NCBI GenBank assembly: GCA_000091205.1
Contig: AP006486.2
Source of the DNA: Cyanidioschyzon merolae
Taxonomy: Eukaryota
Reading direction: 5' to 3' (one strand)
Length of the DNA: 64,000 nucleotides
The stretch's first letter is position 1. Every line of letters begins with the position of its first letter. Below are positions 14,331-64,000 of this stretch, in pieces. Position numbers and translations under genes: made by a program. Below the pieces are notes generated by a model. That model worked only from the letters and a program-made list of their open reading frames with translations. It ran no database searches and had not been told where the DNA came from.

Positions 14331-14439
14331 ACCACTACTGTACACCGCTGGCGGCTACAACGTTATTCTTTTCAAAGACGTTTGTTTCCAGGGATGAATA
14401 CTGAGCGTCCACAGCAGCACACCTCTCCTTCGAACGCGT

Positions 14440-30056: not shown

Positions 30057-30226
30057 GAATTCACTGCTCTTCATATTACACGGTCACTAGAATGCGACCA
30101 GGTTGCACGTACCACAGAAAATGCAGCAACGTACGCTGCCAGAATTCACTGCTCTTCATATTACACGGTCACTAGAATGCGACCAGGTTGCACGTACCAC
30201 AGAAAATGCAGCAACGTATGCTGCCT
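30057..30226. repeat. Two tandem copies of an 85-bp unit (98% identical) just 3' of the WD40 gene
   Basis: gaattcactgctcttcatattacacggtcactagaatgcgaccaggttgcacgtaccacagaaaatgcagcaacgta(c/t)gctgcc occurs at 30057-30141 and 30142-30226. Confidence 0.85.
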
Positions 30227-33654: not shown

Positions 33655-36286
33655 CGATCACGAGGCACGCCATACAGCAGCAATGCTGTAAATACTGGAG
33701 TGCGCCGGGCGCTCCGTACCGCACAAGTGTATGGGCCGGCTGTCGAGGCTTGTTGTGAGCGATCAAAGACACAGTTCATGTCAGTGGTGTTTGTACGAGT
33801 CGGTGATGTAGGCGTTCTCGGGAGCGTTGACGGGAGGCCTGTTACATTGTCGGAGGTGGGTATTGAAGAGTGTTTTCGGAGCGGACGTGCGGGTCATGGA
33901 ACTTGACGGGTTTTTGGAATGCTTGACGAATATTTCTGATCACTGATGGCAAGTGCGGAGTCGCCGGGGAACCCGATCATTGCATGCGTTTTGTCCGGAT
34001 AAGGCGTACCCGGCAGGACGCAGGGTGCCTTGATGTGACTCGTGTGCGTTGTTAGGGAGGGCGTTTCGTCGATGGACAGCGACTACAGCAGCGGTGCAGC
34101 CCGTGTTGCGCTAGGCGTCGACGTGAGGCTCAGTAGCCGGAAAATGATCGCTGGATCAAGAGTCGATACTCAGCGAAACGGTCGGTCTGGAGCTAGCGGA
34201 TCTTTTTGGGGTATCCAGAGCGATTCAGTGGTCTTTTGCATTGATTGCCGATTACCATCTGCTATCCTGGGGATTCTGGGTAAGTTCAACGGGCGTGCAT
34301 CGACAATACAGTCCTGGAGTGTGCTTCGGGTGTCGCTGCGCGCCGCTGCCTGCGATGCACGTGTCGCTGCGACGCAAGACAGCGAACACGAGCACTCGGA
34401 AGCGCGACGTCAACAGGCATCGAAGCGAGCACCTCGTTGCAGTCATAGAGCCATGAGTTGCGACCATGCTGGTGCAGATGCAGCGTACAAAAAAAGGCAC
34501 CAGGTCAGCTTCATTGACTTGGCAGAAGCGCATGAGCAAGCGAGCCCGCACCAATGCCCATGCCCGAATGCGCTCTCGCTATACTCGGGTTCGGTGGACA
34601 TGGAATGCGGCATCGCTTGCGCTGTTCCTGCCTTTTGATTTCTTTGAAACGCTCGTCGATGTGCAGCATCGGTATCCAAGGTGTGGCAATAAGAGCTTAC
34701 GTATTTATAGATATTGCTTGAGGCTCCGGTTCCTGTTTTCGGAATCGATGGTACGAATCTTCGCAGCTAGACTAGGCTACTTCCCCAGAATCTATGTATT
34801 TGGCGACGCTGTCGAACAAGTGTTCCTAAAATGGCCGAAATCTGCATCCTGTTCATCATTAAAATCTCCCATTCCTCTCATATGCACACGTGTAGCACCC
34901 TCAAATGATGCCGTCTTCAAGAAGTATATCCGAAATCTTCATCCAATTCATCATGAAAAGCTTTCGCGCTTCTCGTTTCTTTACGAGTATCATCCCCAAA
35001 TCATGCATTTTTCAAGTTTCCGATCTTTTTCCGGTCCGAGGAAGCTCATATGCTCAACGATTGAATGCAGCTGGATTCATGAGGAAACATATTCGACGGC
35101 TCCCGCTGACCACTTTAGGCGTTCATGGAGGAAACCTAGCAATCGCTTCCAATGGACACTAGGTCGACGTTGTGCATGAAGGCGACGTAGACGGACCAGC
35201 ATGTATAGACTCATTTGCTCGCCTGGATTTTTCTTGCAGAACTTGTTTCATCATGGACAAAATCTCGTTCCGCACATCCTCTTCCGGATCGAACAGCATG
35301 GGCTCGCGCACGCACCAGACAGAGTACCCGCCGAGGGTATCGCGCGGAAGAAGCCCCTGATCGTCAGGACCGGCAGCGGGTGCGAAAACCGAAGAGGTCG
35401 GCATCGAACGTAGCCTCTTATACCCGTCCAGGGCATGTCAAGAGAAATGAAGCAAGCGTCCGCGCGCCATAGCGCGGCGCTTGGAGAATCATGCCTCTTG
35501 GACATGCGGGCTTTCCTGATCACAATCAAGCATCACTGCTGCGAAAGGCGCAGCGCGGCGGTGCACAAAGGGCATGGAAACGGAAAGCAGGACATAGATC
35601 GCAGCTTTCGACTGTCGATGAAATTCGGTGATAACTGCTGGATACTACTTCTTCGGGACTTGAACGGAACCATCGGCATCCTCCAACTGTTAAGAACAGA
35701 GCTCTATGGAAAGAAGAACCCGTCGTATTTACACCTGGAGATAAAAGAGAGGAGAGCGCCTGCCGAGACTGGTGTTAGTGACTCTCTGGGAAGCATCGCG
35801 AGCTCTCGTGCGAACGCGCTAATGCGCTGCATCGACCTGCTCCATCAGATGCCGACATACGTGTAGCACAAACACCACGCAGCTCAGTACCAGCACGACA
35901 TACCCAAAGCTCGGTACGTACCTTCACCTGTTGGTGCTCAATGCAGCTCGAGTCGTCGCCAACGCCTTCCGAATACGCCTTGTGCCAAGGCAGATGCACC
36001 TGCCTCCACCAGCAGCTCCGGAAACGATGCGGCGCGCGCTGATCGCCGTGCGTGTGTGCGTGCGAGCATGCGAGCGTGCGTGCGTGATTGCATGCGTGCA
36101 CGGCGGTAATCGCGCCTCCGTGAACCAGCCACAGCGTCGGATTCGATCGCCGCGCGGCTGCATTCACGGAAATCGCCTGATCAACAGCATTGTTCTGCGC
36201 TGGGCGTGCTACCCGATCGGTGCGACGGTGAATACGCTGGTGCTCCAGTCGCTCGCTTTCGTTTCACTCGTAACCAATCAGTATCC

Positions 36287-38733: not shown

Positions 38734-40658
38734 AGCGGGAGTCGGTGAAGCGTTCAGGTTGAAGACAGCGGGGATTTCAAATTGAAGGAGAAAGGCCAAA
38801 CGGCTAGCAACATCGCGAACATCGATCACGAAAATGGACACGTGTCCGCGCGCATTGCACAGGATGCGCGTGATGTTTTTTCATGGACAAAACGATTCCA
38901 TAGGCCAGCGTTCTCCGATGATGCGCATTTTTCTTTTCTTACTTTTTTTGTGTATTTTTTTTCAGTGTGCGATGAGATATCCATCAAACCCCTACACTCA
39001 AGTTACATTACCCAGACTTTTTCTCGGATATTCTGGTCGTTTCATACGTCCTATCGTGTGTGCTTAGAGCCTGCAGTTCCGTATTCGCCTTTGCACCTTA
39101 ACCGCTGGAGCTGATAGTTCATAGAGCTAGAACGGCTTTTCTATACCACAGAGGGCGTCGGCTCGAGGCGTGCTTCACCCGACGTAGAATCGGGTCTCGT
39201 CGTCAGTTTGTGCTCGGACAGTCTGCAGGCGCAAACTTGCCTTCGCTGCACGACACGCTGGAGAAACTTCGCTGTTAGAATGAATCCTGGGAGCCGCCTC
39301 TCTCCTTCGTGATCATGCATGGAATGCGTTGTTGTCGGTTGGCAATGCGGGTTTGTGCTTGACGCTCACCACAGTGGATAGGCGCAGAAAGCGCACTGGG
39401 CCCGTGTGCGTATCCGATTCGCTGGACCTTTTGCATAGAAGGTAGCATGCGCGTGATGGGCGCTCCCTCGACTGCCGCCACCGTCGTCGCGTGTGCGATC
39501 TGGAATCAGCGCTGTGGACTGGCGCTCTAGGGTCGATGCAGTATGTCTGCCTGCTTGCCTGGCTGCCTGCCTGTTGAAGCACGGGTACGCATGCGATAAC
39601 GCTGCCACTAGGGCCGTGATACTCGTGCTCGTGCACAGCCTGTCTTTTTTTGCTATTCTTATGTACTGGAGTAGCGCCGAGGAGAACGCTTCGTGCCGCC
39701 GATCTCGGTGACAAGGTGCACTATAGGTGCTCGCGTGAAGCTGGGCAGGTTCGCGCACCGCAGCGGCGCCTCGCAGCAGGCACGAATAGAGACGATCACC
39801 AGCAGCTGATGACGTGATGGAACTCGAGTGCGTATGAGTTCCTTCGGCTGTCTTCGATAGGTTTTGCCGTCATCGGCAGCTATGTGGTCCGCGATGAAAG
39901 CAACTGTGCCGAGGAGTGCTGAGAACCCTGCGAGCGACAAAGCGCCCGCCAGCTCTTCACAAGCGGCGAACGAGCGGTCGAGCGAGCACGCCACAGACGA
40001 GGTTAGCTGGGTACGACGCCGCCAAGCCGACGTGGTCGAGGACGTTATGTACCGCGAGCGTATGACGCTTCGCGTGTGCGCGTTGGGTTTTGGTGCGTTC
40101 AGTAGAGTTCGTGGCGCACTGGTGATCCGCGATTGCCAGTATCAGAATAGACTGATAATTGGAACTTGTCAATCCGTTCCAGCCGCTTGATGTTTTATCG
40201 GAAATAGTTTACATGGACGGAACCGAGACTCGAAGCACAGCGATCGCGATAAGCGCCGAACGGTTCATTCATGTACACGGGATACTTTGTCGTTAGTCGG
40301 AATGGCTTGGTTGACACGTTGCCACCGGAGTAGTTTAGATCATCAGAACCAGATGATTCGGAACGCGCCCAAACAAAACTTCACAAAAGACCAATAATAT
40401 CCCTCGTATTTGTAGGCACGAGACTCCGCTGTCTTCCGTTGCTTACCCGTAGCATCTACACATCACGCATTCTTCAAGTTCTTGATCTTTCTATTTCAAG
40501 CCAACTCGTGAATGCAGTGACTCGCGCCGTTTTGGTGGACAAGGCATCAAACTCGACGTCGTCCATTGGTGAATGCTTCACGAGCTCATCCCGACTGTTC
40601 ACTGGACTAATATCGTCAAGTAAGTGATTGAGTTTGAAAGACCAATCCTCCTTTCGTT

Positions 40659-41006
40659 GTGGCTATCGACGAAGCTGCATTCCACAGTAGCATGATCCAT
40701 CGCCCGCAATATGCTACCAGGGGTTCCCGTCTCTTCTGCTCCGAAAGAAAACGGTCTTGGTTTTGGACTTTAGTCACCGCAGCGATCGCTTCTAGTCGAG
40801 CACTGGCTATCGTTGTGCGCGAAGGCAGCGTGGACGGATCACGATTCCTGGCCATGATCTCCAGCCTGGATATTCCTTCTGGTACGTGTTTCATCATGAA
40901 CAACATCGCGTTCCATGAACCCGCTGTCGGATGGATCAGCATAAGCTTTCACGCGCTGCAGACAGCGTTCTTGACGAGCGGATCGCACAGAATAAAAAGT
41001 CCATGA
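40659..41006 (+). repeat. Copy 1 of a dispersed ~0.3-kb element family with conserved coding potential (boxes AIDEAAFHSSM ... ISSL..SGTCFIMNN)
   Basis: Homologous over ~100 aa (same frame) and ~70-80% nt identity with 51524..51958(-). Box 1 is also present at 59385..59465(-) and 63772..63852(-). Confidence 0.45.
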
Positions 41007-43389
41007 TTATGGGGTACGGCACCGAGCGCTGATACGAGCGAGTGCATCTAGCGAAGCGTTCTGTACACAACAGGGGCGTGTTCCGAGCGTTGGTGCAAAC
41101 GTTCACGTGCCACTGGACCGAAATCGGACCGCAAGGTGTTGTCGCCAGATGGGAACACATGGCTCGAGTCGAGTGTCACCGCTGCGACCGGCGCGCCAGT
41201 GCTGGGCGCAAACGCGAAGCTGAGGAAGGCAAGCCACTCGTAGACCGCAACCACTGCACGGGCAGGAGAGGCGTCGAGCGCAGCAGCCGGTGGCTGTGAA
41301 ATCGGGACTTCATGTTGCCGTCAATGTCCTTTGACCTCTGACAAAGGAGCTGGAAAGGCAAGCGAGATCCGCGTATTTAAAGCCGGATACAAGCAAGAGA
41401 AGAAAGCCTACAACGCCTAGTGTTGATGTAAATATGGGAAGAACCCAAAAATTTAGCGTTCACACCCCTCTTGAGTAAGTGGACTTGTCCCTTTTTCTTC
41501 TGACACCGGTGCCATGTCCCCGAATCGATGCATCGAAAAGGATGCGCTCGGGTGCGAAAACGCTGCCCGGTACCCGATTTGAAGCCTTTTCCTGGACATC
41601 ATATCGGTATCCTCGGTGACTTGGAATGATGGAACAAAATAATCGTTTCCGGTGATTTTATATACGGCGCTTCAGCATAGTCCGTGGAAATGTCGCTCGA
41701 CGTTAGGCGACTGTATGCTGCGGAAGCATGCAACATTCCCGAATGATGCGCTTTGCATTGCAGACTTGATGTAAAACGCTTTGTCTCTGCGCACATTGTT
41801 ACTGATGGATTCACGTGAGAGGACGCCCCTCATGCTCGAGTTCCTCGCCATCGGACGCTCGACCCGCTTTTTCGTACACCATATGGGGCATGAGGCTCTG
41901 GTCCAAACCCGATATCTCTTCCGCTATCAGCATGAACCCGGGATCTTGAAGCGCATATGTTGTCCTGAATATGTATTGAAGGGATCCGTGCACCGTTGAT
42001 TCCTGCACTCGTTGGGCGCTCTCTTCGAAGGCACAGCCGTGCCGCCTTTTGCGTACGACAGCGTCACGGGACGTCACCGACCGATGAGACTTTTCGGTGA
42101 CGTTTTTATCCAGCTGAGCGAACAAATCATGGAATGCGCACTTGTCGCCTTCGTAGAACGGTAATTGTTGGCGAACCCAGTGCACCCTAATTTTTCCTAT
42201 GGAGACGTTGGGACACATACAGTCCGCCTGAATAAAGCGTACAAGGCATGGCCCTGTTCCCGGTACGATGCTCAGAGCGAGTCAAGATCAGACATCAAGC
42301 CGCCATTCCGCTTGTCGGTATGCGACCCGTTGTCCATTGTGCCCGAATCCCAACGACTCCAGTCCATGGGAAACTTATCCCGTATTGTTTCTCCTGGCTT
42401 GCGCATTGCTCGTGTTGTTGCACGCAGCATTCGGTCGATGCATTCCAAAACAATGTAGACAGCTACCAACCCTGCGTCTGGAACGACTACGAACGGTCCA
42501 GGGACATGCTGCGCCAAGGCCCGCGAAATCAGACGAGCCTTTATTGTGTTGGATGCAATGCAACGCTCCAGGATGCCCTGCATCTCACTGTTTGGTAGCT
42601 TCTCCCCGTCACGATGCTGATGTAGCCAGGCATGGAAAACGGCTGCTCGCTGGTATTGCCGCGCTCACAGGTTCTCGTTGCTCTCTCTTTGCGTCACGTT
42701 TTGGGTGCATCTGCTTCCGGTTTGCACGTTGGTTTTTCTCCTTCCCATATGCTCGGTGTGGGGGCATAGATGTAATCACTGTACTCTACAACCGTTTTCA
42801 TTCTCTGGTAGCAGTCGGACAGAGAGGACCACGGCATAAAAAACTATCTTTTCTGTGTACATACGTATCTGCTGGCTCTTAGGTGCCTTTTCATCGTCAT
42901 CTGCATAGCGACCGTACCCGCAAACCGAAGCAACGCTTCCGTTCAGCGTATGCGGAGGCTGAGAACCACGTGCTTACAGGAGCACTTGCGATACCTGCTC
43001 ATGCAACATCTATGAGATGGGACTCTCCGGAAACGGCAAAGCCGTTGCTCGTTATACCTCACGAGGCAAACAAGAGACCTCGCCCCGGGAGGTACGCTCT
43101 TGGTGCACGAGCGATACCCTGAGAGCAAAGCGCGTTGCTCCTGGTTGTGCCTGTGCTGGATGCGCGCTCACCCAGCTGCAGCTAGGCACGTCTCCCGTTG
43201 ACCTTTATCACTGTATCTCGTGTATCCGGTGCCTACCTCAAAGTCTTCCAAACTATTCAGGCAACTTCATTCCTGAAAGGCTATCTACCTACCAGTATGT
43301 CTACGTTTGCGCGAACATCACGTGCGCTGCTCGCTATCGCTCATCGATATCCGACGTCTTCCCGTTCCACACGTACCTAGAGACGATTC

Positions 43390-50960: not shown

Positions 50961-51523
50961 AACCGATAGCAGGGGGCCTGTCGAAACAGACGGGGAGGCA
51001 TCTGTGATTGCATACTCATTTACCGTCCATAGATGTGAACCGTTGTTCGCTTCACTGGAACATAGTCCAGAACGCGGGCGAACACGTGAAAGTGCGCTGC
51101 CTCATCTAGTTGTCATGAACATGAGCGTCTGTGAGATTTCTCTGGACTGCTTCCTTCCCAGCTGGGTCATTTCCGGGACTGGATACGCTGGTGCTTCGTG
51201 TCCCGCCAGCTACGATGTCAGCGCTAGCGTGACGATTACGCAGTTCCCCGCAATTGCAGACGCATTTCGTTACCAGGCAGAGGTTGTGATCTATGCTTCG
51301 CTTCTCACTTTCGTCTACTTTGTAAAAAGCCTCAATGCGCCTTTCGCAACGATGCCACCTGACTCAGGTCGATTGTTCCCAAACGTTCACGCCAACTCCA
51401 CTGCCAGGCGGTGCACTGTGGCGAGTGACGGCTTGCTTCAGGACCCAGAACATCTCAGAGGCGGATACAAAAGGCTTCTCTCGATAGTCTCCCCGGCTCC
51501 GGGTCCAATGCCTTACTCCATGA

Positions 51524-51958
51524 TCACGGACGTGTTCTGTGTGATACCCTCGGCGAGTATTCTTCCCGTTGCATACGCATATACACGCTCTTTCTTTCAA
51601 TAGAGGCGTTTCGGAACTCGGTATTATTCATGATAATACAAGTACCGGAAAGAGAATACAGGCTCGAGATCTTGTCCAAAAGATGCGCTCCATCTACGCG
51701 CACTCGGTGCAAAACGCTGCCACATGCTGCAATGGGAGTGGTCAATGCGATGACTGGAGTCCGAATCGGAGAACCTTTCCCATGCAAGCAGCAGAGACGG
51801 ATGCTTCTGACAGCATATCCGGCGAATGGTCTCATGCTGCTAGTGAATCCCGTATCATCGATAGACAAAAGAGAAGAGAATTCGTTTTTCGACCGGAATC
51901 GAGTAGTAGTCGTGGACGTGAAAAGTTCAGTGAACCTACCGCATGAGCTTGTGAGCAA
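51524..51958 (-). repeat. Copy 2 of the dispersed ~0.3-kb element family (SIDDTGFTSSMRP ... ISSLYSLSGTCIIMNN), convergent with and ~600 bp from the second TnpB/Fanzor-like relic
   Basis: Protein-level and nucleotide-level homology to 40659..41006 and to the box-1 segment inside the LepA-flanking repeats. Confidence 0.45.
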
Positions 51959-52626
51959 GTCGACTAGGGACCATGTCGAGTTTTTTCACCTCATGAATGC
52001 AGCGGCGCGTGATGCTGTCCCCGCGACTTGCATTGTAACAAAAAGACGAGATACTTGAAACATGCGTGATGGATACATTCTATACATCAGGATCGAAGAA
52101 GTCTGGCGTCCTCTGCGCATGCTCTGGGCGATGATACAGGTTTTACCACAGAGTTCAGTTCGACGGTGTCGCAAATTATCTCGATTCCGGTGACGGAACA
52201 AATTCGAGCGGCAACGCGTCGGAGTTGCTTCTCCGAAACGACACCCTAGATTCCCGAACCTATATATGCGTCCGTGAACCCTTATTGATGCAATTGGAAT
52301 GTCAAAGCTTTAAATCTAAAACGAGAGTTTGCAAAAAATCGAAACGCAGGAACAGACTGAGCATCTCCGTATCTGCTTTTCCTCTGACACGGGTTTAGAT
52401 CGCCGCTGCGTACATCGTTTCCCAGAAGAAATTTCGCATGATATAGTTCCTGCCCTAGACGCTGAAGACGCTTGCCGACTCTGTGATACCTGATCGCGTC
52501 TTCAACCCTAAGCCAAAGAAAAACCGTGTCCTGACCTCGTGAGCGACACGTCCACAGACAGGTTTCCTGCGGCTTGTAGTCGCTAGCGCGCGTGCTTACC
52601 GGAGGTCAAACGCATAGGTGCCAGTT

Positions 52627-53295
52627 ATGGAGCCGGAGCAACCTGAAGCAGTGCTGTCTGGCGAAGAGCAAAAAGCATCAGGTGATTGTGATCAGATCCG
52701 CCTGTACATGTACGACTTTGGCCAGTGCGATGTCCACCGCTGTACCGGACGAAAACTGCTTCGTTGCGGTCTCCTGCGCACACAGCGGCTGAATGTTCCG
52801 TGTCATGGTGTCTTGCTCTCACCGGACGCAACCAGAGTGCTTTCGGCGGCCGATCTTCCACTAGTCGCCAAAGGTGGACTCGCTGTCATCGACTGCTCTT
52901 GGAACCAGGTTGAAGCACCGTTGTTGCGCCGCGTGCGTTGCCGAGGTCCCGGTCAAAGGAGGCTCCTTCCGTCGTTACAGGCTACGAACCCAGTCAACTA
53001 CGGGCGTGGTGCGCGCCTGACCTGTGCTGAGGCACTTGCAGCAGCGCTTTACATCCTCGGACAGAAGACAGCAGCAATTAGGGTCCTAGCTCCGTTTCGC
53101 TGGGGTGATGCGTTCTGGTCGGTGAACCAGACCGCCCTCGACATGTACGCCTCGTGTGCAGATGCGGAGTCCCTGGTGGCTGCGGAAGCTTCATGGCTTG
53201 CGCAGCTCGCTCAGGAGCATGAGCAGAACAAGACCCAATGGGATCCGTTTGCCGGTCTGGACTCGAGTGACTCGGACGAAGCGGAAGCATGCTGA
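52627..53295 (+). CDS. TSR3: TSR3-family ribosome-biogenesis protein (18S rRNA aminocarboxypropyltransferase)
   Basis: YMYDFGQCDVHRCTGRKLLRCGLL...GVLLSPDA...AADLPLVAKGGLAVIDCSWNQVE...RLLPSLQATNPVNYGRGARLTCAEALAAALYILG...FRWGDAFWSVNQ..LD.YA.C matches the TSR3 consensus (DFGQCD..RCTG.KL.R.G, V.DCSW, L.AANPVNYG....L...EA.AA). First ATG at 52627. Confidence 0.75.
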   Translation: MEPEQPEAVLSGEEQKASGDCDQIRLYMYDFGQCDVHRCTGRKLLRCGLLRTQRLNVPCHGVLLSPDATRVLSAADLPLVAKGGLAVIDCSWNQVEAPLLRRVRCRGPGQRRLLPSLQATNPVNYGRGARLTCAEALAAALYILGQKTAAIRVLAPFRWGDAFWSVNQTALDMYASCADAESLVAAEASWLAQLAQEHEQNKTQWDPFAGLDSSDSDEAEAC

Positions 53296-54284
53296 TTCTG
53301 CGGTGTTCGATTCGCCCCGCTGCCTGCAATGGTGTGAATACGTGAGATAATGAGGCTGTGTGCACGCCTTGCTGAAAAATTGTGGATGCTTGGATAAGCA
53401 TGCATACGAGACGTGCATTTGGTACACATGCCCCGGTCACTCAGCGCCACGTTCACAGTCGACTGGCTGGTAGATGACGAAGCTGCACAGACAGCGAAGC
53501 GTGTTCCTGCACGAAAAGCACGTCGAGACGATTTCACAATGGACCCGTCTTTGTGCTCGAGTCGCTGATCCACAAAGCAATGCAGAAAGGCAGTTTATTT
53601 CGGTAGGAATCTCGTTGAGATCGCGACAGTGCGAACCGCCAAGAACGGCGTCACGGTACATACCAAACTCGAGGTCAGTTGCAAGTCGTACCTGAGATCG
53701 TGGTAAGAATTCAGAATTTTAGATACATGAAGATGTGCTGTCTTGAAAGACAAGCGCACACGGCCCAGCACACGAGCACGTCGAATGCTTGAACACTGCA
53801 TTCGCGCGGATTCTAGGTCTGAAATCCCTATAAGCAATTGGCCTGAACAGAGTCGCTCGTGGAGCGCTCTCCATTACGCGGGCATTGTCCAGCACGCAGA
53901 TGCGGACACAGCGTCCAGGCACCGTGCACAGTACCCCCAATACCGGATGGGGCTTATTTACAGATGAAAAGTTCGGTGCAACGTCGAGTCATGGAGCAGA
54001 GTATCATCTGTGCCAGACGGCGCTTATGAAACGAGTGAAAAAATTCGATACGGACGTTTGTGGAGCCATGGATTGTATCTGCCTTCTGTTCTGCGTTGGA
54101 CGTCACGATCCACCAGCTCCCGGCTCGTGAAGGTGTCCGCTTGCGATGCATAGTATGCAACTGCAAGCTGGTGTCCCATCATGTGAGTACAAGCCATGGG
54201 CGAGCCCCAGACGCGCCGCCCACAGGTGACCGTGCGTCTCCCGTATCGTCAATAGTCGGCAGCGATAAACAAGGATCCCACGCC

Positions 54285-55103
54285 CTAATTGTCGCTGCTT
54301 GCTTGGATACGTGTTAAAATCTGCAGCAGATTCAAAAACAGGTTCAACACATCAAGATAGAGAGAGACGCAGGCAATCGACCAATCGTCCGGGCCAAGGT
54401 GATGAATGATCAGACTGGTGTCGAAGAGAATATAGCCACAGAAAACGAGTGCGGACACCACGCTCAGGACGAAGGAGAACGTTGTCGAAAAATGCCCCAT
54501 CCATCCCAGTACCGCATTCAGGACTGCTGCCCCCAACACGACGAGCAGTGCTGCGCCTAGGAACCCTCCGAGGAAGCTGAAGTCGCGCTGCGAGCGCCAA
54601 CAGTAAATCGTCAGTCCGCCAAAAACAAGCGCTGTCAAGAAACAAGCCTCAAAGACGATGAAACCAAACCCTGAAGCGGCGTATATAGCGCAGATCATCG
54701 CAACTGACAGAGCCTCGAAGAACGTGAAGACGCTCAGCGCTGGGAGACTCCACTTTGGCCGCGAGCGAGCCCAGAACAGACCCACCAGCGCCCCCAGTGT
54801 GCCCAAGAAGCACACCCAAATCAGCCAGGAAGATGCAGAAATTACCCATTGATTGAGGCTCCCACTGATCATGAACGCGCCCGAGAGCACCGCAGTAAAC
54901 CCGAGCTGGGCTGCGAGCACTGTATACACCTTTCGCAGAAAGTCCAAGCGGATGCGCTCCATGCAAGCTGCAACGGTCACCCCGACGTCATATTCCTCGA
55001 GGTCAGCGTGTCCGAGCGCCCGTGAAGCACTGCGCTTCACACTGTACTCGTACGTGTTGTAGTTGCCGCTCTCGATATCAACTGAAGCGCTTTTGGACCC
55101 CAT
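54285..55103 (-). CDS. TMBIM / Bax-inhibitor-1-like (Lifeguard/GAAP family) seven-TM protein
   Basis: RLDFLRKVYTVLAAQL...FEALSVAMICAIY...TALVFGGLTIYCWRSQRDFSFLGG...LVFCGYILFDTSLIIHHLGPDDWSIACVSLYLDVLNLFLNLLQIL parallels TMBIM4/GAAP (R.AFIRKVY..L..Q...FT.LEALTVAV...T.VFFGLT.Y.LQSK.DFS..G...F.G.IIYDT..L.H.L.PE......ISLYLD.INLFL.LLR.L). ATG at 55103; an N-terminal extension is possible. Confidence 0.75.
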   Translation of the reverse strand: MGSKSASVDIESGNYNTYEYSVKRSASRALGHADLEEYDVGVTVAACMERIRLDFLRKVYTVLAAQLGFTAVLSGAFMISGSLNQWVISASSWLIWVCFLGTLGALVGLFWARSRPKWSLPALSVFTFFEALSVAMICAIYAASGFGFIVFEACFLTALVFGGLTIYCWRSQRDFSFLGGFLGAALLVVLGAAVLNAVLGWMGHFSTTFSFVLSVVSALVFCGYILFDTSLIIHHLGPDDWSIACVSLYLDVLNLFLNLLQILTRIQASSDN

Positions 55104-56373
55104 CACGACAGCGTGTGCCCTGGAACGAGATTGTCGGAGAGGGCGCGTCAGTCGCTCGAAGAGCGACACGCAGGCGTCCGCGTCGTTCGCGTGCGTTCCA
55201 GCGAACGGGACTTTAATGTATATTGCTATACAAATAATGACACTCGTGGTGCCGACAGCCTTGCGCACCCGCGCGCCCCCTCAAGCAGCACATCCGGCGC
55301 CTGATGTGCGATCCAGCGAGGCCTGCACCGTTGAACACAATTCGCAGTCAACTGGGTCATACCTGCATAATCATAGACAACGATTCACAGCGCGACGCAT
55401 ACTGGTCGTCTCGGGGGATGCAGCGCCCGATCAGCACGCGATGTGCGTAGCGTGTGTATGCGAGCTTTTTCGCACCATATCTGCGTTCACTTGCTAGCTC
55501 GAAAGAGCGCGTTCAGAAACCGCAGAGCCGCGCATGTGAACGCGATCACGCGCTCGGCACAGCATCCTGCAATCATGGACAATGGCGCTCGAGCCGTAGA
55601 CAGGTAAGCAGCGTCTACGGCCTGTTGCCGCGCGGTCTGTGACCTCCAGCGCGGCACCAACCGTGGTACGCAAGGCTGAGATCTGCGCCTTTACCCTCTG
55701 AGGCTGCAAACCAGAGTCCCAGTCGAGAAGACACCCGCTCTAACGCCCTATGCTGTTCCACCTGAGCTCCAGATGTTATCGATAAAGAATCCCTGTGAAC
55801 GGCATCGCGCTTCCTCCGGTACGCCAAGACGCAGCTGCCTTCACAGTCTCTCATGGCGAACAGAGCGTCGAGTGCGCGATTCGTGCCAACATCACGAGTC
55901 TCTTGTGCACGAGAAGCGTGGAATGCGTCGAGCACAAAGGTCGACCCCATGCCAGCGCCCTCCCCGAGCCTGCATCCGTACCAGGCGACGATGGCATGTA
56001 GCTAGCCCACCATGCACCCAAGCGGTAACGCGTCAGCGACAGTGCCGCCGCCGCCGCCGCTGGCGCTGGCGCTGGCGCCTGCAGTCGCTGTGAACGCGCC
56101 ACAAGGGCCAGTCTGCAGGATGCTGTGTAAATGCGACAATCCGGTCCCAACGGCTGAACGTGCTGGCGACGCTCGTTGGCATCCGCTTCTGACTCTAGGT
56201 GCTATGCCTCCGGAGACCTACGTGCGGCAGGGACAGTGCCAACTCGGTGCATAGCGGCGTTTCCGAAGAGGTTGTCACGGCGGAAACGGGTCACTGGTTA
56301 GCGCTGAGATCATCAGTGAAGTCGAGAGTAGCCTGGGTGACACGGGTTTGCGGCAAAGATAGAAATCAAGGAG

Positions 56374-58083
56374 ATGGAGGGTGAACCACCGCGCACCACG
56401 AGCGAGAACGAGATGACGACTAGCAACGAGGCTGAAGAGTCAGCGTTCGAGCTTCATTTCAAAAGCAGTACGGGTAGCAAGTTTACGCTGCCTGTCCAAG
56501 ACCTTGAAGAAAAGATCGAGGCACTGAAGCAACGTTTAGCGGAACCGAGTGGCTTCGCGCCCGAGACAATGCGCGTCATCTACAAGGGTCGAGTCCTGAA
56601 GGACGCTGAAACTTTACGGGAGCTTCAGGAAAAATATGGACTCGAGTCTGGACATACCATGCACTTGGTACGTGGCGTTCGTCCAGCTGCGGCGCCTGCC
56701 GGAGCACCGACGGGGAGCGCGCTCCCCGGCGTCGGTGGCCCGGTACCAGCGACTCCCGCTAGTGCGGCCTCATCCGCGCCTTCACTTGGGTCTTCTGCCG
56801 GAAGTGCGGGAAATCTCGCAGGTTCAACGCCAACGCCGTCGAGTGCCGGCTTTGATATGTTTGGGCAAGCACGCGCAGCTACTTGGAACGGAACAGCGGC
56901 GAACGCGAGCGCAGCCACTGGTGCTCCCCTGGGCTACGCACCAGATGCTGCCTCAACCGGGGCAAACGTCGGTAGTGCTGGTGCTGGTGGTGGATCCTCT
57001 TCTATGCAACGACTCCAACAGCAAATGCAGCAGGCGCTGCTTGCGAATCCGAACGCGATGCAGGAGATCCTCAGTAGCCCCTTGATGGAATCCATGGCGG
57101 AGAATCCCGAACTCATGCGGGCGTTGATGATGGCGAACCCGCAGATTCGGGAAATGATCAACCAGAATCCCGAGATCGGTCATGTTTTGAATGACCCAGG
57201 AGTCCTGCGCCAGACATTACAGCTGATGCGTAATCCTCACCTCATGCAGGAAATGATGCGCACAAGTGACCGAGCAATGGCTAATATCGAGTCGATGCCA
57301 GGAGGTTTCGACGCGCTGCGGCGTCTCTACACGGACATCCAAGGACCTCTGGAATCCAGCGGGCCCATGGCACCAGGTGCCGGTGCCAGCACTTTCACGA
57401 GAGCCACTCCGTCGAATCCGACTAGTAGTGACACTGGAAATGGGCGTTCCTCGACGACGCTACCGTTGCCGCCGTCATGGGCGGCAGGCGCCACTCCAGC
57501 AACCACTGGCAACAATGGCAGCCAGATGCCTTGGTCTAGTCCAGACCTGTCGGAAGAGGCGGCAGTTCGGGCAACGCGAGCTATTTTGGATAACCCGGAG
57601 CTGTTCCGCCTCACCCAGGAGCAGTTCATCGCCTCTGACACGTTCCTGCTCGCGAATCCAATGGTGTCGGCGATGGCGGCCATGAACCCGCAGATGATGC
57701 AAGCGCTCCAGGACGTCCAGTTTCGACGAAATCTCTTTACGAGAGAATTTTTCGAGTCCACGCTTGCGATGCAGGAGGCACAACTGCGCTTTCGACGGGC
57801 GATTCACCAGGCGTTGCTCCAGAGCGGGTACGACCCGGCGATTGCAACGACACCGCAACCCATGGCTTCGGCAACAGCTGGTGGACCACGGCAAACCCGT
57901 GGTGCGACATTTACAGATCCGACGGCTCAGATGACGCGTGAACAATTGGAGCAACATTTTGCGACCCAGTTGCAACAGATGCGGGAAATGGGTTTCTTCG
58001 ATACAGATGCCTGTATCGCGGCGTTGCGTGCGACCGGGGGAAACGTAGCGGCCGCTTTGGATCGGCTCCTGAACGGTTCCTAA
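56374..58083 (+). CDS. DSK2: Ubiquilin / Dsk2-type UBL-UBA shuttle protein (N-terminal ubiquitin-like domain, STI1 repeats, C-terminal UBA)
   Basis: UBL: LHFKSSTGSKFTLPVQDLEEKIEALKQRLAEPSGFAPETMRVIYKGRVLKDAETLRELQEKYGLESGHTMHLV. STI1: NPELMRALMMANPQIREMINQNPEIGHVLNDPGVLRQTLQLMRNP.LMQEMMRT.DRAM.NIES.PGGF..L.R.Y. UBA: LQQMREMGFFDTDACIAALRATGGNVAAALDRLL. ATG verified at 56374. Confidence 0.85.
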   Translation: MEGEPPRTTSENEMTTSNEAEESAFELHFKSSTGSKFTLPVQDLEEKIEALKQRLAEPSGFAPETMRVIYKGRVLKDAETLRELQEKYGLESGHTMHLVRGVRPAAAPAGAPTGSALPGVGGPVPATPASAASSAPSLGSSAGSAGNLAGSTPTPSSAGFDMFGQARAATWNGTAANASAATGAPLGYAPDAASTGANVGSAGAGGGSSSMQRLQQQMQQALLANPNAMQEILSSPLMESMAENPELMRALMMANPQIREMINQNPEIGHVLNDPGVLRQTLQLMRNPHLMQEMMRTSDRAMANIESMPGGFDALRRLYTDIQGPLESSGPMAPGAGASTFTRATPSNPTSSDTGNGRSSTTLPLPPSWAAGATPATTGNNGSQMPWSSPDLSEEAAVRATRAILDNPELFRLTQEQFIASDTFLLANPMVSAMAAMNPQMMQALQDVQFRRNLFTREFFESTLAMQEAQLRFRRAIHQALLQSGYDPAIATTPQPMASATAGGPRQTRGATFTDPTAQMTREQLEQHFATQLQQMREMGFFDTDACIAALRATGGNVAAALDRLLNGS

Positions 58084-58588
58084 ACCGTGATCATTCATGG
58101 ATTGAATCTACAGGTTCGTGAACGGGCTTGGACTGCTATGCGCAAAAGAAGACGCCCTGGGCGTGCGTGCTGTGTCCCCGGTTTCTGACACGGCCTGTGC
58201 GACCCTCGCACTGCTGTTGCTGGTACGCACAGACCTGTTCGCGGGATTCGCGTACCACCAGCACTGAGGATGTAGGAGGTGCTGCGCATCAGTGCTCAGA
58301 GGCTGGCGAGAGGCCGCTTGCGAGCTTTCCGTGAGCCAATGCTCTTCGTCACTGCATCGTTGATAGATGGAGGGGCATCCCGTAAATGTCATGTGGGATT
58401 GCGTACTTCGTGACTGTGCTGCAACGGCGGGGCCTGGTCGATTGTTCCGCCGGAAGCTGCACATTGGTTGCGGCAATGCCCTGAGGACTATCCTGCTCTC
58501 CGCGCACCAGATCGAGGTTTCTTCACGCGGTGCACGCCTCGGGAAGTGGTGTCCAGTGTACGCAGGTCGTATCATGCAGTAAACTCAG

Positions 58589-59613
58589 GTCAACGTGAAA
58601 AAGTATGGATCCACTTTGCTGACTCTTGCGTACGCTGTAATATCTGGGTATCTTGTCGTTGTTGTTACACCAACACCACTCATTTCACGATACGCCCCCT
58701 GGCTGCTCTTTTTTGCAGTCTTGGACAATCCGCTTCACATACGGGCGTATCTAGTGTCCATCCGGCGCCGTCGCAAGCAGTCGCAGAATGCTCCGATACA
58801 AACAAACGTCCCGATATGGGTGCTTCCTGCGTTAGCCAGCGCACCGGGTACGGACTGGCAGGAGTCGCAGTCTACGCTTCGCTTGCCGTGCTCATTCTCG
58901 TTGTATACAATATCAATGCGCTCGTCGCAGCGCAGACTGCGTGGGCTCTATCAGGTGTTTCTGTTTGCGTACTAGCGCGCTCCCTGAGACGATTGCCCTC
59001 TCGCGCTGCACAGCTTGCGTTATCGCTCGGTAGACGCACTGTGGGCAGGTACAGGAGACTCTTGGGGATACCGTTGACCGTCTCCTCGCCCGGGTACTCT
59101 GGCCTAGGGTCACGAGCGTCCGCTGTGCCATTCACTAGGCGAGGGCGTTGTACGCTGTCCGGTGCATGCGCAAGTGCACACTGTTGCATTCGAGAGTGGA
59201 TTTGCATCACGTGATGTTCCCCATGAGCACGAGACAAGTGCCGCAGGGACTAGTCAGTGTCGTGAACAATTCGAGAGGTGTCGATCCGTCGACGCTCGCT
59301 CTGTGCACCGCACGATCACACGCTCAGCTGGAAGTGATCGCTGCGATGCCTGCATTCCTGGTCCCTGGATCGTTCACGATACTTGAAGCAAAGACGGCAG
59401 ACGCGGGGCACGTATCGCACCCGAGGACGCATGCTGGTATGGAATGCCGTCTCGTCGATGGCCGCAGCCAAAGGCAGCATCGTGTCTCGAACGGCACTGA
59501 ATGCCTGGCGAAGCAAGATCAGCGAATGTGTCGCATGACCATGAGTGCACAAGTCGCCAACGGAAGACGTCGAGTACGGTTCGTGGTCCATCCAGAGACG
59601 CGATTTACCGCAC
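58589..59613. repeat. Direct repeat R, copy A (at least 1025 bp), 3' of LepA; it contains a box-1 copy of the dispersed element family
   Basis: Colinear with 62976..64000 at a constant offset of 4387 bp with only scattered substitutions (about 97% identity) and no indels noticed. It may extend beyond 59613, but copy B is cut by the window end. Confidence 0.9.
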
Positions 59614-59991
59614 CTGCGAGGCGCCACAGACCAGGAAGATCGAGGACTTGAAATATGAGCGATTTGGGCATGCCCTATGGATCGAGAGGAAAAACGCAGA
59701 TACTCGTGTGTATGCATTGGGTAAGGATCTCGGATACTTTACGAACCAGTGTCCGACGGCGTCGTGTATCATCTCGATTCCGTTCACGCACCGAATGCCA
59801 GCACCACAAGACTCGAAAGCGTCACGCTAACACAGACTACGACCGAGGATCCCGGAACCAGGTCTGAACCTGTGAGCACATCTCGGTGCACTTGGAATGT
59901 CCGTACAGTACGTCTTGACCTGGGTTCTGAATAGAATCGCAAGGCGCAAAAACACCCATCCGTCCAGTGTTCTGGTCTCATTTATGAGGCA

Positions 59992-62313
59992 TTAGGAAGC
60001 GGCGTCACGTTTCGCCGTCAGAATCGCTCGAAACGCCTCCTTCGGCACGCGAATGCCGCTTGCGAGGGCTCGTTCCGCGGCGATTTTCTTTCCTCGTTTT
60101 TGTTTTTCGAGCAGTTTCTTCTTGCGTGTGACGTCGCCACCGTACAACTTGGCGGTCACGTCCTTCCGCAGCGCGTTCAGATGCTCGGAGGCAATGACCT
60201 TGGACCCAATACGCGCTTGGATGGCGACTTTGAACTGTTGACGCGGGACGATCTCCAAGAGTCGCTGACACAGACTCCGTCCAATCGCTTGTGCCGCTGA
60301 TTGATGACAGATGACGCTCATGGCGTCCACAACTTCACCGTGAATGGAGATGTCGAGCTTCACCAGGTCACTCGCTCGATACCCAACCAGGCGATAGTCG
60401 AGGCCAGCGAAGCCCTTGCTCCGCGACTTGAGCTGGTCGAAAAAGTCACTCACCATCTCCCCCAGGGCCATCTCGTAAATGAGCACCACCCGGGATTCGG
60501 TGAGGAAGCGCATGTCGAGGAACTCGCCACGACGGCTCTGGGCGAGCTCCATGAGCGATCCCACGTACTCTGCTGGTGTGATCATTTCGATACGCACATA
60601 GGGTTCCTCGATTCGTTCAATATTCGTCGGTGGCGGCAACTTGCACGGATTGTCGATCTCGAGGACCTCGCCGCTGGTCGTATGAACGCGGTAGACAACC
60701 GAAGGTGCCGTCGTCACAAGATCGAGGTCGTATTCTGTCTCGAGGCGCTCGATGACCACATCGAGATGGAGCAGGCCCAGAAAACCGCAACGGAAGCCAA
60801 AGCCCAGTGCCGGCGAGTTTTCGTTTTCATAGTAGAGCGCAGCGTCGTTGAGTTTCAGTTTTTCGAGAGCATCTCGTAACTGGTTATACATGCTTGCATC
60901 GGCGGGGAAGATACCGCTGAACACCATCGGCTTGACCTCTTTGTAGCCCGGAAGCGGTTCAGATGCAGGATGGCGTGCTAGGGTAATCGTGTCGCCAACG
61001 CGAGCGTGCGCTACGGTTTTGATGCCAGCCACCAGGTAGCCGACCTCGCCAACGGACAGCTCTTCGACAGGAAGCGGTTTCGGTGTGAAAACGCCAATTT
61101 CATCGACGTCGTATTCGCGGCCATTCGCCATAAAGCGAATACGATCCGACTTGCGTAAGGTACCGTCAACGATACGAAAGTAGACCACGACTCCGCGATA
61201 ATCGTCATAGGCGCTATCGAATATGAGCGCGCGGAGCGGGGCATTCTCGTCGCGGACTCGGGGTGGCGGAATCCGTTTCACGATTGCCTCCAGTGTCTCT
61301 TCGATGCCAATACCCAGTTTCGCCGAGGTCCGAACTGCATCGCGCATATCAATACCGATGACCTGCTCGACCTCCTGGGATGCCTGCTCTGGCTGCGCTG
61401 CCGGCAGATCTATTTTGTTCAGAATTGGGACGATCTCCAAATTGTTCTCCATCGCCAGGTACGCATTCGCGAGTGTCTGCGCCTCGACACCCTTGGTCGC
61501 ATCCACCAGCAGAAGTGCACCCTCGCACGCTTGCAGTGAACGAGAGACCTCATAGGAAAAATCCACATGGCCCGGTGTGTCGATCAGGTTCAGCACATAA
61601 GTCTGGCCGTCGTGTGCGGTATAGTTCATTCGCGCTGCCTGCAGCTTCACCGTAATCCCTCGCTCACGCTCCAGTTCCAGCGAGTCAAGGTATTGCTCTC
61701 GCATCTCACGCGCACTTACTGCGCCTGTTCGTTCGAGTAGCCGGTCCGCCAGGGTAGATTTGCCCGCGTCCACGTGAGCAGTAATAGAAAAGTTTCGAAT
61801 GCGCGACGGTGGTACCCGGATCAGGCGTCCCTGTGGCTGCGCGTGTTGTTCACCATCTGTTTGGAAGGGCGGCGTTGGTGCCACTGGCTTCGACGGTGTC
61901 TCACGTGTTGTGTTCTGTGGCAGCGACTGCTGAGCTCTCAGACTGAGAGCGCGTCCCGAGTCTCGCGCACACCTCTTCAAGTCTAGCGGGAGTCGAGCTC
62001 TATCTGCAAATGCTGCTGGTAACAGAGCGCACTGCCGCCAGTTCATATGGCGTCGAAACACGTTGTATAGCGTCGGACTCATGACGGCAAAGGCAAGTGC
62101 TGGTGCCTGCCAACGCCCCGAAAGCCGATCCCGCTCCGAGTTCGTAGGGAGCACGCCCGACCTACTGGTGCCAGTTCCGCTGCGCAGGCACTGCACACGC
62201 CCGGCACACGCCAAGGCGCGTGCCTCTGAAGGAAGCTGGCGCTCGGGGACTATACGCTGCGGTTCGTACGCACACTGGCCTCTACTTGGAACGCGTTCAG
62301 CATTGGTATGCAT
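59992..62313 (-). CDS. GUF1: Translation factor LepA/EF4 (GUF1-type organellar GTPase) with a ~170-aa N-terminal extension (presequence)
   Basis: [22 protein letters not shown]...[22 protein letters not shown]...[43 protein letters not shown]...[12 protein letters not shown] and a C-terminal ...[15 protein letters not shown] match LepA throughout. ATG verified at 62313, though a later Met could be the true start. Confidence 0.85.
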
Positions 62314-62975
62314 GACACTAAGCGTGTCCGAGTCTACGAGTACCGTTCACCGGAACGACAGGCAATTAGAGACGCACTGCTCGTGTTCTCTACGAGAGCA
62401 CGTCAACGACCACTCCCTGCCCTGAGACCCAACGAAGCCAACGAAGTTCTGTGTCAGTGAGCGGTCGTGGTAGATACCCCTGCTGCAAAGCAACGCAAAG
62501 CAACAGCACCGTAATAAAGTGGCAACAGAAACGTTTCCCTGAGGCCGAACACCAGCACAACGCCTGCGCCTGTAGTCCGGCGATACAGCGCACGGCCGGC
62601 GCCAGTACCGCAACAGGCCGTACAGGCTGGCAAGTGCGTCGCCGTGCCCGGGTTCAGTGGACGGATCCGGTGCTGTGCTTGCAGCGTGATGCTCACGTTG
62701 GATGGACACGAATGGATAGCACTGGAAGAAAAGAGTGAGAGACGAGACTTCGACGCCTCTGCAAGGCCAATGCGTGCGCACAGTGGAGCACTCGCTCTGG
62801 GTAAACGGTAACAAGTCGAAATCGCACCCTAGGGGTACGGCACGGGTAGCTGCGATATCTTCGTTCGGCATCGCGAACGAGCTACGAACGTGCAATGCGA
62901 GTGTCTGTATGACGACAGGAGAGATACGTGGGATATCACGCTGGAGCGCTGCTGACTGCGTTGCGTTGTACGCGT

Positions 62976-64000
62976 GTCAACGTGAAAAAGTATGGATCCA
63001 CTTTGCTGTCTCTGGCGTACGCTGTAATATCTGGGTATCTTGTCGTTGTTGTTTCACCAACACCACTCATTTCACGATACGCCCCCTGGCTGCTCTTTTT
63101 TGCAGTCTTGGACAATCCGCTTCACATACGGGCATATCTAGTGTCTATCCGGCGCCGTCGCAAGCAGTCGCAGAATGCTCCGATACAAATAAACGTCCCG
63201 ATATGGGTGCTTCCTGCGTTAGCCAGCGCACCGGGTACGGACTGGCAGGAGTCGCAGTCTACGCTTCGCTTGCCGTGCTCATTCTCGTTGTATACAATAT
63301 CAATGCGCTCGTCGCAGCGCGGACTGCGTGGGCTCTATCAGGTGTTTCTGTTTGCGTACTAGCGCGCTCCCTGAGACGATTGCCCTCTCGCGCTGCACAG
63401 CTTGCGTTATCGCTCGGTAGACGCACTGTGGGCAGGTACAGGAGACTCTTGGGGATACCGTTGACCGTCTCTTCGCCCGGGTGCTCTGGCCTAGGGTCAC
63501 GAGCGTCCGCTGTGCCATTCACTAGGCGAGGACGCTGTACGCTGTCCGGTGCATGCGCAAGTGCACACTGTTGCATTCGAGAGTGGATTTGCATCACGTG
63601 ATGTTCCCCATGAGCACGAGACAAGTGCCGCAGGGACTAGTCAGTGTCGTGAACAATTCGAGAGGTGTCGATCCGTCGACGCTCGCTCTGTGCACCGCAC
63701 GATCACACGCTCAGCTGGAAGTGATCGCTGCGCTGCCTGCATTCCTGGTCCCTGGATCGTTCTCGATGCTTGAAGCAAAGACGGCAGACGCGGGACACGT
63801 ATCGCACCCGAGAACGCATGCTGGTATGGAATGTCGTCTCGTCGATGGCCGCAGACCAAGGCAGCATCGTGTCTCGAACGGCACTGAATGCCTGGCGAAG
63901 CATGATCAGCGAATGTGTCGCATGACCATGAGTGCACAAGTCGCCAACGGAAGACGTCGAGTACGGTTCGTGGTCCATCCAGAGACGCGATTTACCGCAC
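62976..64000. repeat. Direct repeat R, copy B, 5' of LepA; runs to the window end
   Basis: See copy A. Confidence 0.9.

Follow-up and report, generated by a model that had tools for sequence, protein, structure and literature searches.

The window, a 64,000-nucleotide stretch of the genome of the red alga Cyanidioschyzon merolae (GenBank assembly GCA_000091205.1, contig AP006486.2), carries at its right end a single intact LepA/EF4 gene flanked by two direct copies of a repeat, R_A and R_B (Table 1). The encoded protein features GTP_EFTU, GTP_EFTU_D2, EFG_C and LepA_C domains (Pfam analysis) and belongs to the cyanobacterial (plastid) type. It is extended by ~170 aa at the N terminus and shares 66–68% identity with cyanobacterial EF4 and 81% with its Cyanidiococcus counterpart. 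No exact database match to this protein was found; the metagenome protein P0001 is identical at 771 of 773 residues and thus differs by 2. The gene is present in single copy per locus (tblastn), and 9 of 11 polymorphisms between strains fall at third codon positions. Just 4 bp separate the LepA stop codon from the start of R_A, and the 3' untranslated region must lie entirely within transposon-derived DNA. On the other side of the gene, the spacer is polymorphic at 3.8%, resembling non-coding DNA, and probably contains the LepA promoter.

Table 1. Features of the repeat-flanked LepA locus and older copies of the same repeat family in the window.
Feature	Position	Strand	Basis
R_A, complete 1399-bp transposon copy	58589..59987	- (transposase sense)	L001 self-match
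R_B, second copy, cut by window end	62976..64000, predicted end ~64374 (~374 bp past window)	-	L001 length
LepA/EF4, 773 aa, intact	59992..62313	-	Pfam
Spacer from LepA start codon to R_B, 662 bp, unique	62314..62975	no strand	No similarity to R_A flank
Ubiquilin-like gene, convergent with LepA, on outer flank of R_A	56374..58083	+	Pfam ubiquitin, UBQLN1, UBA
C1, old diverged family copy with internal deletions	34577..35868	+	nhmmer E 2e-25, R match 34631-35778
C2, old diverged family copy	40124..41510	+	nhmmer E 2e-64, R match 40210-41490
C3, old diverged family copy	51046..52404	-	nhmmer E 4e-64 (R match 51224-52357) and family HMM

A comparison of the window with itself at an offset of 4387 bp gave ~25% identity, the random level, up to position 58588, followed by 94–100% in each 50-bp interval from 58589 through to the window end. 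Positions 58589-59613 and 62976-64000 differ by 20 mismatches in 1025 bp (98.05% identity) with zero indels, and the pair is the sole long repeat detected by BLAST in the window (E-value 0). A preliminary description of this DNA had correctly reported colinear direct repeats lacking indels around an intact LepA, although its identity estimate of ~97% was slightly low. The full length of R, 1399 bp, was read from L001, a 176-kb metagenome contig that matches the window at 99.0% identity along 14 kb. Positions 12327-13725 of this contig correspond to R_A (window 59987-58589) and positions 7940-9338 to R_B. The two copies lie in direct orientation with starts 4387 bp apart and ~3 kb between them, and unique syntenic DNA follows R_B. 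All four junctions (left flank/R_B, R_B/spacer, LepA/R_A and R_A/ubiquilin side) were found again in independent metagenome contigs (L001, L002, L003, L015 and L016). Therefore, the R-LepA-R arrangement is not an assembly artefact, and the mis-join that the preliminary description had considered can be set aside.

That description had also suggested that the whole [R+LepA] unit might be tandemly duplicated from here on, with a second LepA following beyond position 64000. The window itself ends there, but R_B stops after 1399 bp in four related contigs (L001, L002, L015 and L016), each with one LepA, and gives way to unique DNA with the conserved upstream neighbours of LepA, a syntenic gene of 181 aa and a pseudouridine synthase. 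No second LepA occurs within ~13 kb past R_B in these 99%-identical relatives, which argues against a tandem duplication; the other arrangement proposed, two solo direct repeats around one LepA, agrees with the 1399-bp length of R, its sharp boundaries, its unique flanks and the single gene. The gene order pseudouridine synthase/181-aa gene/LepA/ubiquilin/Bax-inhibitor/TSR3 is kept in Cyanidiococcus (L011) and Cyanidium (L012), where R was not detected at the orthologous loci by blastn, tblastx or the family HMM. As LepA occupies the same slot in both genera and R is absent there, the gene was not imported: LepA is ancestral at this locus and the elements arrived later. A gene bracketed by direct repeats, the second of them cut at the window end, is what either a tandem duplication or a composite transposon that brought LepA here would present, but we regard both as very improbable given these conserved neighbours. 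In addition, had the whole unit been duplicated in tandem and then partly deleted, the deletion would have had to stop exactly at the element end, and the elements that would have formed a composite transposon are dead.

R_A and R_B are copies of a dead, non-coding DNA transposon of the Tc1/mariner/IS630 type. At least five copies of this family (R_A, R_B, C1, C2 and C3) lie in a 30-kb part of the window, and further copies were found in other genomic contexts (L018 and L019). The old copies are 50–57% identical to one another and to R (54% between C3 and R), as against 98% between R_A and R_B; they were invisible to plain BLAST with word sizes of 9 and 11 and were recovered only by tblastx and nhmmer. 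Homology between R and the other copies spans R positions ~8-1399, and the boundaries of the family are those of R. The preliminary description was right that R lacks a functional gene and that a dispersed family is present in the window. It took R to hold only a fragment of that family, whereas R in its full length is a single copy of the element.

The reading frames of C1, C2 and C3 retain transposase remnants, the best being a frame of C2 (AIDEAAF...DG...FIMNNIAFH), which matches Pfam DDE_3 with an E-value of 4.9e-6 (26.9 bits), while P0122, the database version of the C2 ORF, scores 29.3 bits against a Pfam cut-off of 28.6. The family consensus also matches DDE_3 (E 1.3e-4), and a match to an NCBIfam IS630 model was obtained (E 5.5e-4). 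Searched against 5.8 billion proteins, a profile of the family pseudo-protein retrieved P0124 (E 8.9e-16), a bona fide protein with DDE_3 (E 4.9e-27) and HTH_Tnp_Tc3_2 domains; a PDB profile search with the pseudo-protein alignment returned noise only (E ~1). What ties R to these remnants is the homology of its DNA with that of C2 and C3 (E ~1e-64); R itself carries frameshifts and stops, with the second catalytic motif (second D) lost. No intact transposase ORF was found in the family: every copy has multiple stops and frameshifts, and ORFs of the consensus do not exceed 145 aa.

The element ends are similarly decayed. Terminal inverted repeats did not rise above shuffled controls for the ends of any single copy. 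When termini are aligned, TGTC(A/G)G recurs at both ends in several copies, and the two ends of L018c agree by eye over their first ~12 bases. No TA dinucleotide was seen beside either end of R_A or R_B; at this level of decay the position of a terminus is uncertain by a few bp, which makes the absence tentative. C1 has TA at its right flank, and L017, a more intact relative, has TA directly before TGTCAGG; the dinucleotide at the remaining flanks is TG, CG or CC, as decay could have produced.

Other identities for R were considered and rejected. Against a protein-coding gene, its ORFs have no Pfam matches, its 46 polymorphic sites favour no codon position in any frame, and family alignments lack 3-periodicity and contain indels that are not multiples of 3. 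Against a structured RNA or a tRNA, nothing in Rfam matched R at E<=1, and a tRNA search was negative. In the orientation of LepA, R starts with TCAT and ends with TTGAC, unlike the TG...CA of an LTR, and by eye neither Helitron nor LTR termini fit its boundaries. The preliminary description had considered an LTR retrotransposon unlikely, and this judgement holds: the interior consists of the syntenic LepA and the spacer, there is no duplication of the flanks, and R derives from a DDE transposase gene.

The best explanation for the pair, with a probability of about 0.55, is that R_A and R_B inserted long ago as neighbours and that gene conversion has maintained their 98% identity. Both copies would stem from one ancient burst that also gave rise to the other family members and, lying 3 kb apart in one orientation, would repeatedly have copy-corrected each other (intrachromosomal gene conversion, a form of concerted evolution). 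Such proximity and shared orientation would permit the repeated correction that could account for 98% identity here against ~52% for other pairs. Conversion would be confined to the homologous element and would leave the flanks uncorrected, which could explain why identity ends within ~10 bp of the element termini and why any target-site duplications have eroded. Alignments of old copies with one another and with R stop within ~10 bp of the ends of R_A/R_B identity on both sides, termini being decayed and placed to a few bp. Between strains, R positions 375-1399 contain eight strain-specific sites common to both copies and none that is position-specific in the short-read contigs, and R_A alleles of one strain occur in R_B of another. 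In L001, R_A and R_B differ at 4 sites, all <100 bp from the repeat ends, compared with 23 differences between its R_A and that of the window. This sharing of alleles may be an assembly effect of an unphased short-read interior. A rough gap calculation revealed no significant clustering of the 20 R_A/R_B mismatches as a sign of conversion tracts. This reading also demands much, as homogenisation would have had to continue throughout a period in which the other copies diverged by ~0.7 substitutions per site.

Alternatively, one R could be parental and the other made ~1–2% divergence ago by transposition of a defective element with transposase supplied in trans. A single event of this kind would give 98% identity with no need for long-term homogenisation, and the duplicated unit is the whole element, as expected of transposition. 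The family is also clustered, with five copies in 30 kb, and a distance of 3 kb is typical of the 'local hopping' of Tc1/mariner elements; the identical junctions in all contigs place the duplication before strain divergence. We nevertheless consider a recent copy unlikely, since by the time of such an event R was already ~47% diverged from all relatives and its inverted repeats were unrecognisable, leaving little for a transposase to recognise. Moreover, no flanking TA was seen for either copy, R_A and R_B disagree in the outermost bases of their inferred termini, and the Cyanidioschyzon data yielded neither an intact transposase nor an intact or young relative. A metagenome scan with a 32-nt R motif returned four stretches, all at the R_A and R_B positions, and no other young copy.

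Whichever way the likeness arose, the R pair would be a substrate for unequal exchange or for loop-out of the 4387-bp [spacer+LepA+R] unit and would make LepA prone to copy-number change, with loss of LepA by loop-out presumably selected against. Self-closure at the 4387-bp period (4386 bp in one) was seen in six independent contigs, which come from different assemblies. In five of these (L004, L005, L006, L007 and L008) the ends overlap by 141, 123, 123, 123 and 30 bp, respectively, with units of 4387, 4387, 4387, 4386 and 4387 bp once the overlap is removed, while L013 is cyclically permuted. These closed contigs could represent an assembly loop, partly derived from RNA, or a real circle or array.

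If real, the 4387-bp [R+spacer+LepA] unit would exist in at least some wild populations of Cyanidioschyzon as a variable tandem array or an extrachromosomal circle generated by recombination between R_A and R_B, with the two-repeat form of the window as the one-unit state. Six independent assemblies returning the unit as a closed loop are consistent with this; isolated loops normally require that flanking branches be weak relative to the loop. However, a de Bruijn graph gives such a cycle for any R-LepA-R structure, and the contigs that resolve the locus, L001 (176 kb) and L015 (31 kb), have one unit only. Some of the loop assemblies also probably derive from RNA: the first bases of L010 are an Illumina adapter joined directly to window position ~62544, 231 nt upstream of the LepA ATG, and transcripts that start in R_B and end in R_A would yield an isolated loop with no amplification of DNA. 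The 123-bp overlaps equal the largest k-mer of the JGI metatranscriptome MEGAHIT recipe. Many poly-A and RiboMinus metatranscriptomes were produced by a Yellowstone project in which a C. merolae 10D-like alga was sampled (PMC11662350). We therefore consider an array or circle improbable; if true, it would explain the six closed loops and would constitute a natural repeat-mediated gene-dosage polymorphism of a plastid translation factor, in a host genome that is among the most compact and repeat-poor of eukaryotes.

Dead copies of DNA transposons in intergenic DNA are in themselves routine. The C. merolae genome, however, is usually described as almost transposon-free, and five Tc1/mariner-like fossils of one family in 30 kb, along with other old repeats, sit uneasily with this description; intergenic DNA of this alga may be largely decayed transposon. 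C. merolae is also prized for its efficient homologous recombination, and the R pair around LepA offers a clean natural case for measuring conversion between 1.4-kb repeats that lie 3 kb apart.

Old fossil repeats are already known in C. merolae: its Repbase entries include the Fanzor1 element CMe-1A, with ~150 copies, and TE-N2_CMe, with ~70 copies (Bao & Jurka 2013, PMC3627910). These two families, which lack terminal inverted repeats, are like the R family old, diverged interspersed repeats in a compact genome, but they are ~3 kb and 635 bp long, respectively, and encode Fanzor1 rather than a DDE_3 transposase. The R family instead resembles the Tc1/mariner/IS630 (ITm) superfamily in its length of ~1.3–1.4 kb, a transposase read in one direction only, surviving traces of both the first and the second catalytic motif (AIDET.F and F[I]MDNIAFH), a YSP motif, and termini that start with TGTCRG in several copies. 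It departs from that superfamily in that the copies of this alga are all dead, with inverted repeats that are not statistically detectable and TA duplications that are mostly eroded. The arrangement of direct mobile-element copies around a host gene recalls composite transposons and pairs of solo LTRs, where deletion, duplication or excision of a circle is likewise possible; R differs in carrying a DDE transposase relic and no gag-pol interior, in being inactive, and in flanking a LepA that was already in place. Concerted evolution through non-allelic gene conversion is familiar from nearby segmental duplications, palindrome arms and duplicated genes. The R copies are unlike these in being non-functional fossils around a single-copy host gene, for which conversion is read from short-read metagenome assemblies, but share with them that the pair is the closest in its family, that identity is limited to the homologous unit, and that alleles appear, in these assemblies, to be common to both positions between strains.

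Comparison of the window with itself at an offset of 4387 bp gave identity at random level up to position 58588, and then 94–100% per 50-bp window to the window end. Positions 58589-59613 and 62976-64000 differ by 20 mismatches over 1025 bp, with no indels (98.05% identity). This bears out the colinear, indel-free direct repeats of the preliminary description and its intact LepA gene between them, while its high repeat identity was real but, at ~97%, slightly underestimated. The pair is the sole long repeat in the 64-kb window. Its extent (see table) was obtained from L001, a 176-kb hot-spring metagenome contig that encodes the metagenome protein P0001, is collinear with window positions 49980-63997 at 99.0% identity and extends 7.9 kb past the window end. 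In L001 the full repeat, R, is 1399 bp long, with copies at 7940-9338 and 12327-13725. The boundaries are sharp on both copies, and all four repeat junctions were found again in independent assemblies; the arrangement is therefore real, and the mis-join that had been put forward as a possible artefact does not account for it.

Coordinates of R, its diverged relatives and LepA in the window
Feature	Position	Strand	Remarks
R_A	58589-59987	minus (transposase sense)	extent from L001; begins 4 bp past LepA stop codon
R_B	62976 to ~64374	minus (transposase sense)	end projected from L001
Unique spacer			662 bp, between R_B and LepA start
LepA ORF	59992-62313	minus	773 aa, intact, full LepA/EF4 domain set
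C1	34577-35868		nhmmer with R, E 2e-25
C2	40124-41510		nhmmer with R, E 2e-64
C3	51046-52404		nhmmer with R, E 4e-64

Plain BLAST found no other copies of R in the window, whereas tblastx and then nhmmer showed nearly all of R to be homologous to three further stretches, C1, C2 and C3, all of them intergenic and lying between unrelated host genes. Family copies were also found in other genomic contexts, between SRP54 and Yip1 (L018) and near ribosomal protein L6 (L019). The old copies share 50–57% identity with each other and with R in a star-like pattern, compared with 98% between R_A and R_B. Element boundaries were assessed from pairwise alignments with 300-bp flanks, using old-versus-old pairs, in which R plays no part, as well as old-versus-R pairs. 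In both sets the homology ends within ~10 bp of the R_A/R_B identity limits on both sides, so each R is exactly one element and nothing outside it is duplicated. The earlier link of R to a dispersed family holds, but R is a whole element and does not just include part of one. Repeat limits that coincide with the element limits would be a very improbable outcome of a generic segmental duplication.

R contains ORFs with no Pfam-recognisable domain, in agreement with the earlier report of no recognisable gene, and it gave no Rfam match and no tRNA. Across at least 10 haplotypes, 46 of its 1399 bp are variable and these sites are spread evenly over codon positions in all frames, unlike LepA, in which 0.47% of sites vary and nine of the 11 variable sites are third codon positions. 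Judging by this pattern, R evolves as non-coding DNA; the variability of the spacer (3.8%) is similar to that of R. The family alignment has no 3-periodicity, nor do its indels come in multiples of three, and a majority consensus restored no long ORF. One frame nevertheless matched Pfam DDE_3 (consensus, E 1.3e-4; C2, E 4.9e-6), and the NCBIfam IS630 transposase model was matched at E 5.5e-4. A profile of pseudo-protein segments (A2), searched against ~5.8 billion proteins, recovered the decayed C2 and C3 ORFs, three more fossils and P0124 (E 8.9e-16). P0124 is part of a true transposase, matching DDE_3 at E 4.9e-27 and, less strongly, HTH_28, HTH_Tnp_Tc3_2 and HTH_33. The motifs that align with P0124 are AIDETAF (first catalytic D), VDG..F, F(I)MDNIAFH (second catalytic D) and YSP. 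On the strength of these profile matches and shared motifs, the R family is identified by sequence as fossils of a ~1.4-kb Tc1/mariner/IS630-type DNA transposon. R itself is dead: its reading frame shifts between motifs one and two and is broken by several stops, and MDNIAF is replaced by LMGNIT. Its transposase sense is the same as that of LepA. The aligned termini suggest element ends that read TGTC(A/G)G..., and in L017, a more intact relative, TA directly precedes TGTCAGG.

The LepA protein is identical to P0001 at 771 of 773 positions, and its identity to Cyanidiococcus yangmingshanensis (81%), Cyanidium caldarium (80%) and cyanobacterial EF4 (66–68%) marks it as the plastid-type paralogue and places the window in the nuclear genome of a Cyanidioschyzon merolae-like red alga. 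The DNA past R_B is unique and carries a pseudouridine synthase gene as well as the conserved 181-aa gene. In L001, L002, L015 and L016, which jointly cover ~13 kb upstream, no second LepA was found. With R_B ending and unique DNA following, the tandem duplication of R plus LepA that had been proposed is unsupported, and the other suggestion, two solo repeats able to loop out a single LepA, was essentially right. The gene order pseudouridine synthase, 181-aa gene, LepA, ubiquilin, Bax-inhibitor and TSR3 is common to the Cyanidiococcus (L011) and Cyanidium (L012) loci, where no R-like sequence was detectable by blastn, tblastx or the family HMM; in Cyanidium only 84 bp separate LepA and ubiquilin. 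By this comparison LepA is ancestral at the locus and R is not. Import of LepA by a composite element is excluded, since LepA is syntenic in both relatives and R is undetectable there.

The start of R_A so close to the LepA stop (window 59988-59994) means that the LepA 3' UTR and polyadenylation signals must fall in transposon-derived sequence; two contigs, L009 and L010, continue from LepA 1.2–1.3 kb into R_A. Elsewhere at the locus, ~5 kb without a convincing gene lies between the pseudouridine synthase and 181-aa genes past the window end (L001 542-5797), a gap of ~1.4 kb in Cyanidiococcus and 63 bp in Cyanidium, and may consist of more decayed insertions. In Cyanidium caldarium a 1087-aa gene with a Cas12f1-like_TNB (TnpB/Fanzor-type) domain (L012 15784-19047) lies between Bax-inhibitor and TSR3, where neither the window nor Cyanidiococcus has it.

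The likeness of R_A and R_B would be explained by two ancient neighbouring insertions followed by continual homogenisation by gene conversion, which would be able to act only inside the element; we give this reading, in which the conversion step is inferred, a probability of about 0.55. At R positions 375-1399, eight sites set the window apart from L001 in both copies together and none is position-specific across strains, and R_A alleles of one strain occur in the R_B of another. Position-specific markers occur near the ends only, with positions 42-43 reading CG in all A copies and TT in B copies. The L001 copies differ at only four sites, none of them more than 100 bp from an end, a pattern that an unphased short-read assembly would also give. 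The main rival, a recent trans-mobilisation of R, seems unlikely: it should have left both copies with the same termini and a new TA duplication, but R_A and R_B disagree in the last one or two bases of their inferred termini and no TA flanks either copy. It would also need a transposase recognising ends already ~47% diverged, and no intact or young family relative was found. The differing termini, missing TA and lack of such a relative favour ancient insertions with gene conversion.

Five of the 10 contigs found for P0001 start and finish with the same sequence (L004, L005, L006, L007 and L008, with overlaps of 141, 123, 123, 123 and 30 bp and remainders of 4387, 4387, 4387, 4386 and 4387 bp, respectively), and a sixth, L013, shows this period in cyclically permuted form. 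Each of these independent metagenome or Logan contigs is one unit of R, spacer and LepA. Any R-LepA-R structure yields such a cycle in the assembly graph, but an isolated loop usually implies weak flanking branches. A real 4387-bp circle or tandem array, which we consider improbable, could account for this, as could an origin of the loop contigs from RNA data. L010 opens with the Illumina adapter TCAGACGTGTGCTCTTCCGATCT (L010 1-23) fused at ~window 62544, 231 nt upstream of the LepA ATG, which is typical of fragment-end pile-up at a transcript start; this suggests an RNA-seq origin for the L010 sample and a candidate LepA transcription start at that position. The 123-bp overlaps, which also count for an RNA origin, equal the largest k-mer used in JGI metatranscriptome assemblies. 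The Lemonade Creek project, sampling a 'C. merolae 10D-like isolate', generated many poly-A and RiboMinus metatranscriptomes (PMC11662350). In L009, positions 1-95 span the LepA start codon (L001 9938-10032) and are joined back ~250 nt upstream (L001 ~9782), for which a small local duplication, a template-switch artefact and an assembly chimera are candidate explanations.

Other old repeats occur in the window: a direct, dispersed ~1.3-kb pair at 27763-29137 and 41679-42962 (nhmmer E 5e-14), the latter copy directly adjoining C2 and the pair enclosing ORFs (28155-28637 and 42268-42882) with no Pfam matches; a pair at 13943-14311 and 50657-51017 (E 2e-29), the latter abutting C3; and a pair at 11045-11147 and 14282-14385 (E 5e-10). 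Taken together, these pairs point to decayed mobile-element sequence as a large part of the window's intergenic DNA. A perfect-looking 85-bp tandem duplication (30054-30223, two copies, 99% identical) sits in the 3' flank of a minus-strand WD40-repeat gene ORF (30493-33654). Long imperfect trinucleotide-based repeats lie inside large minus-strand ORFs at 33425-33667 (GAT/GAC/AAC) and 4964-5242 (GTC/GGT), with low-complexity products rich in serine/isoleucine and aspartate/threonine, respectively. A 1446-aa protein kinase (44401-48741, minus strand) has a weak TIR_2 match (E 0.0095) upstream of its kinase domain.

Nearby repeats are known to evolve in concert, and Tc1/mariner fossils are commonplace in eukaryotes. 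Together with the old TIR-less interspersed repeats already catalogued in C. merolae (CMe-1A, ~150 copies, and TE-N2_CMe, ~70; PMC3627910), this gives the R pair, real as it is, an ordinary explanation.
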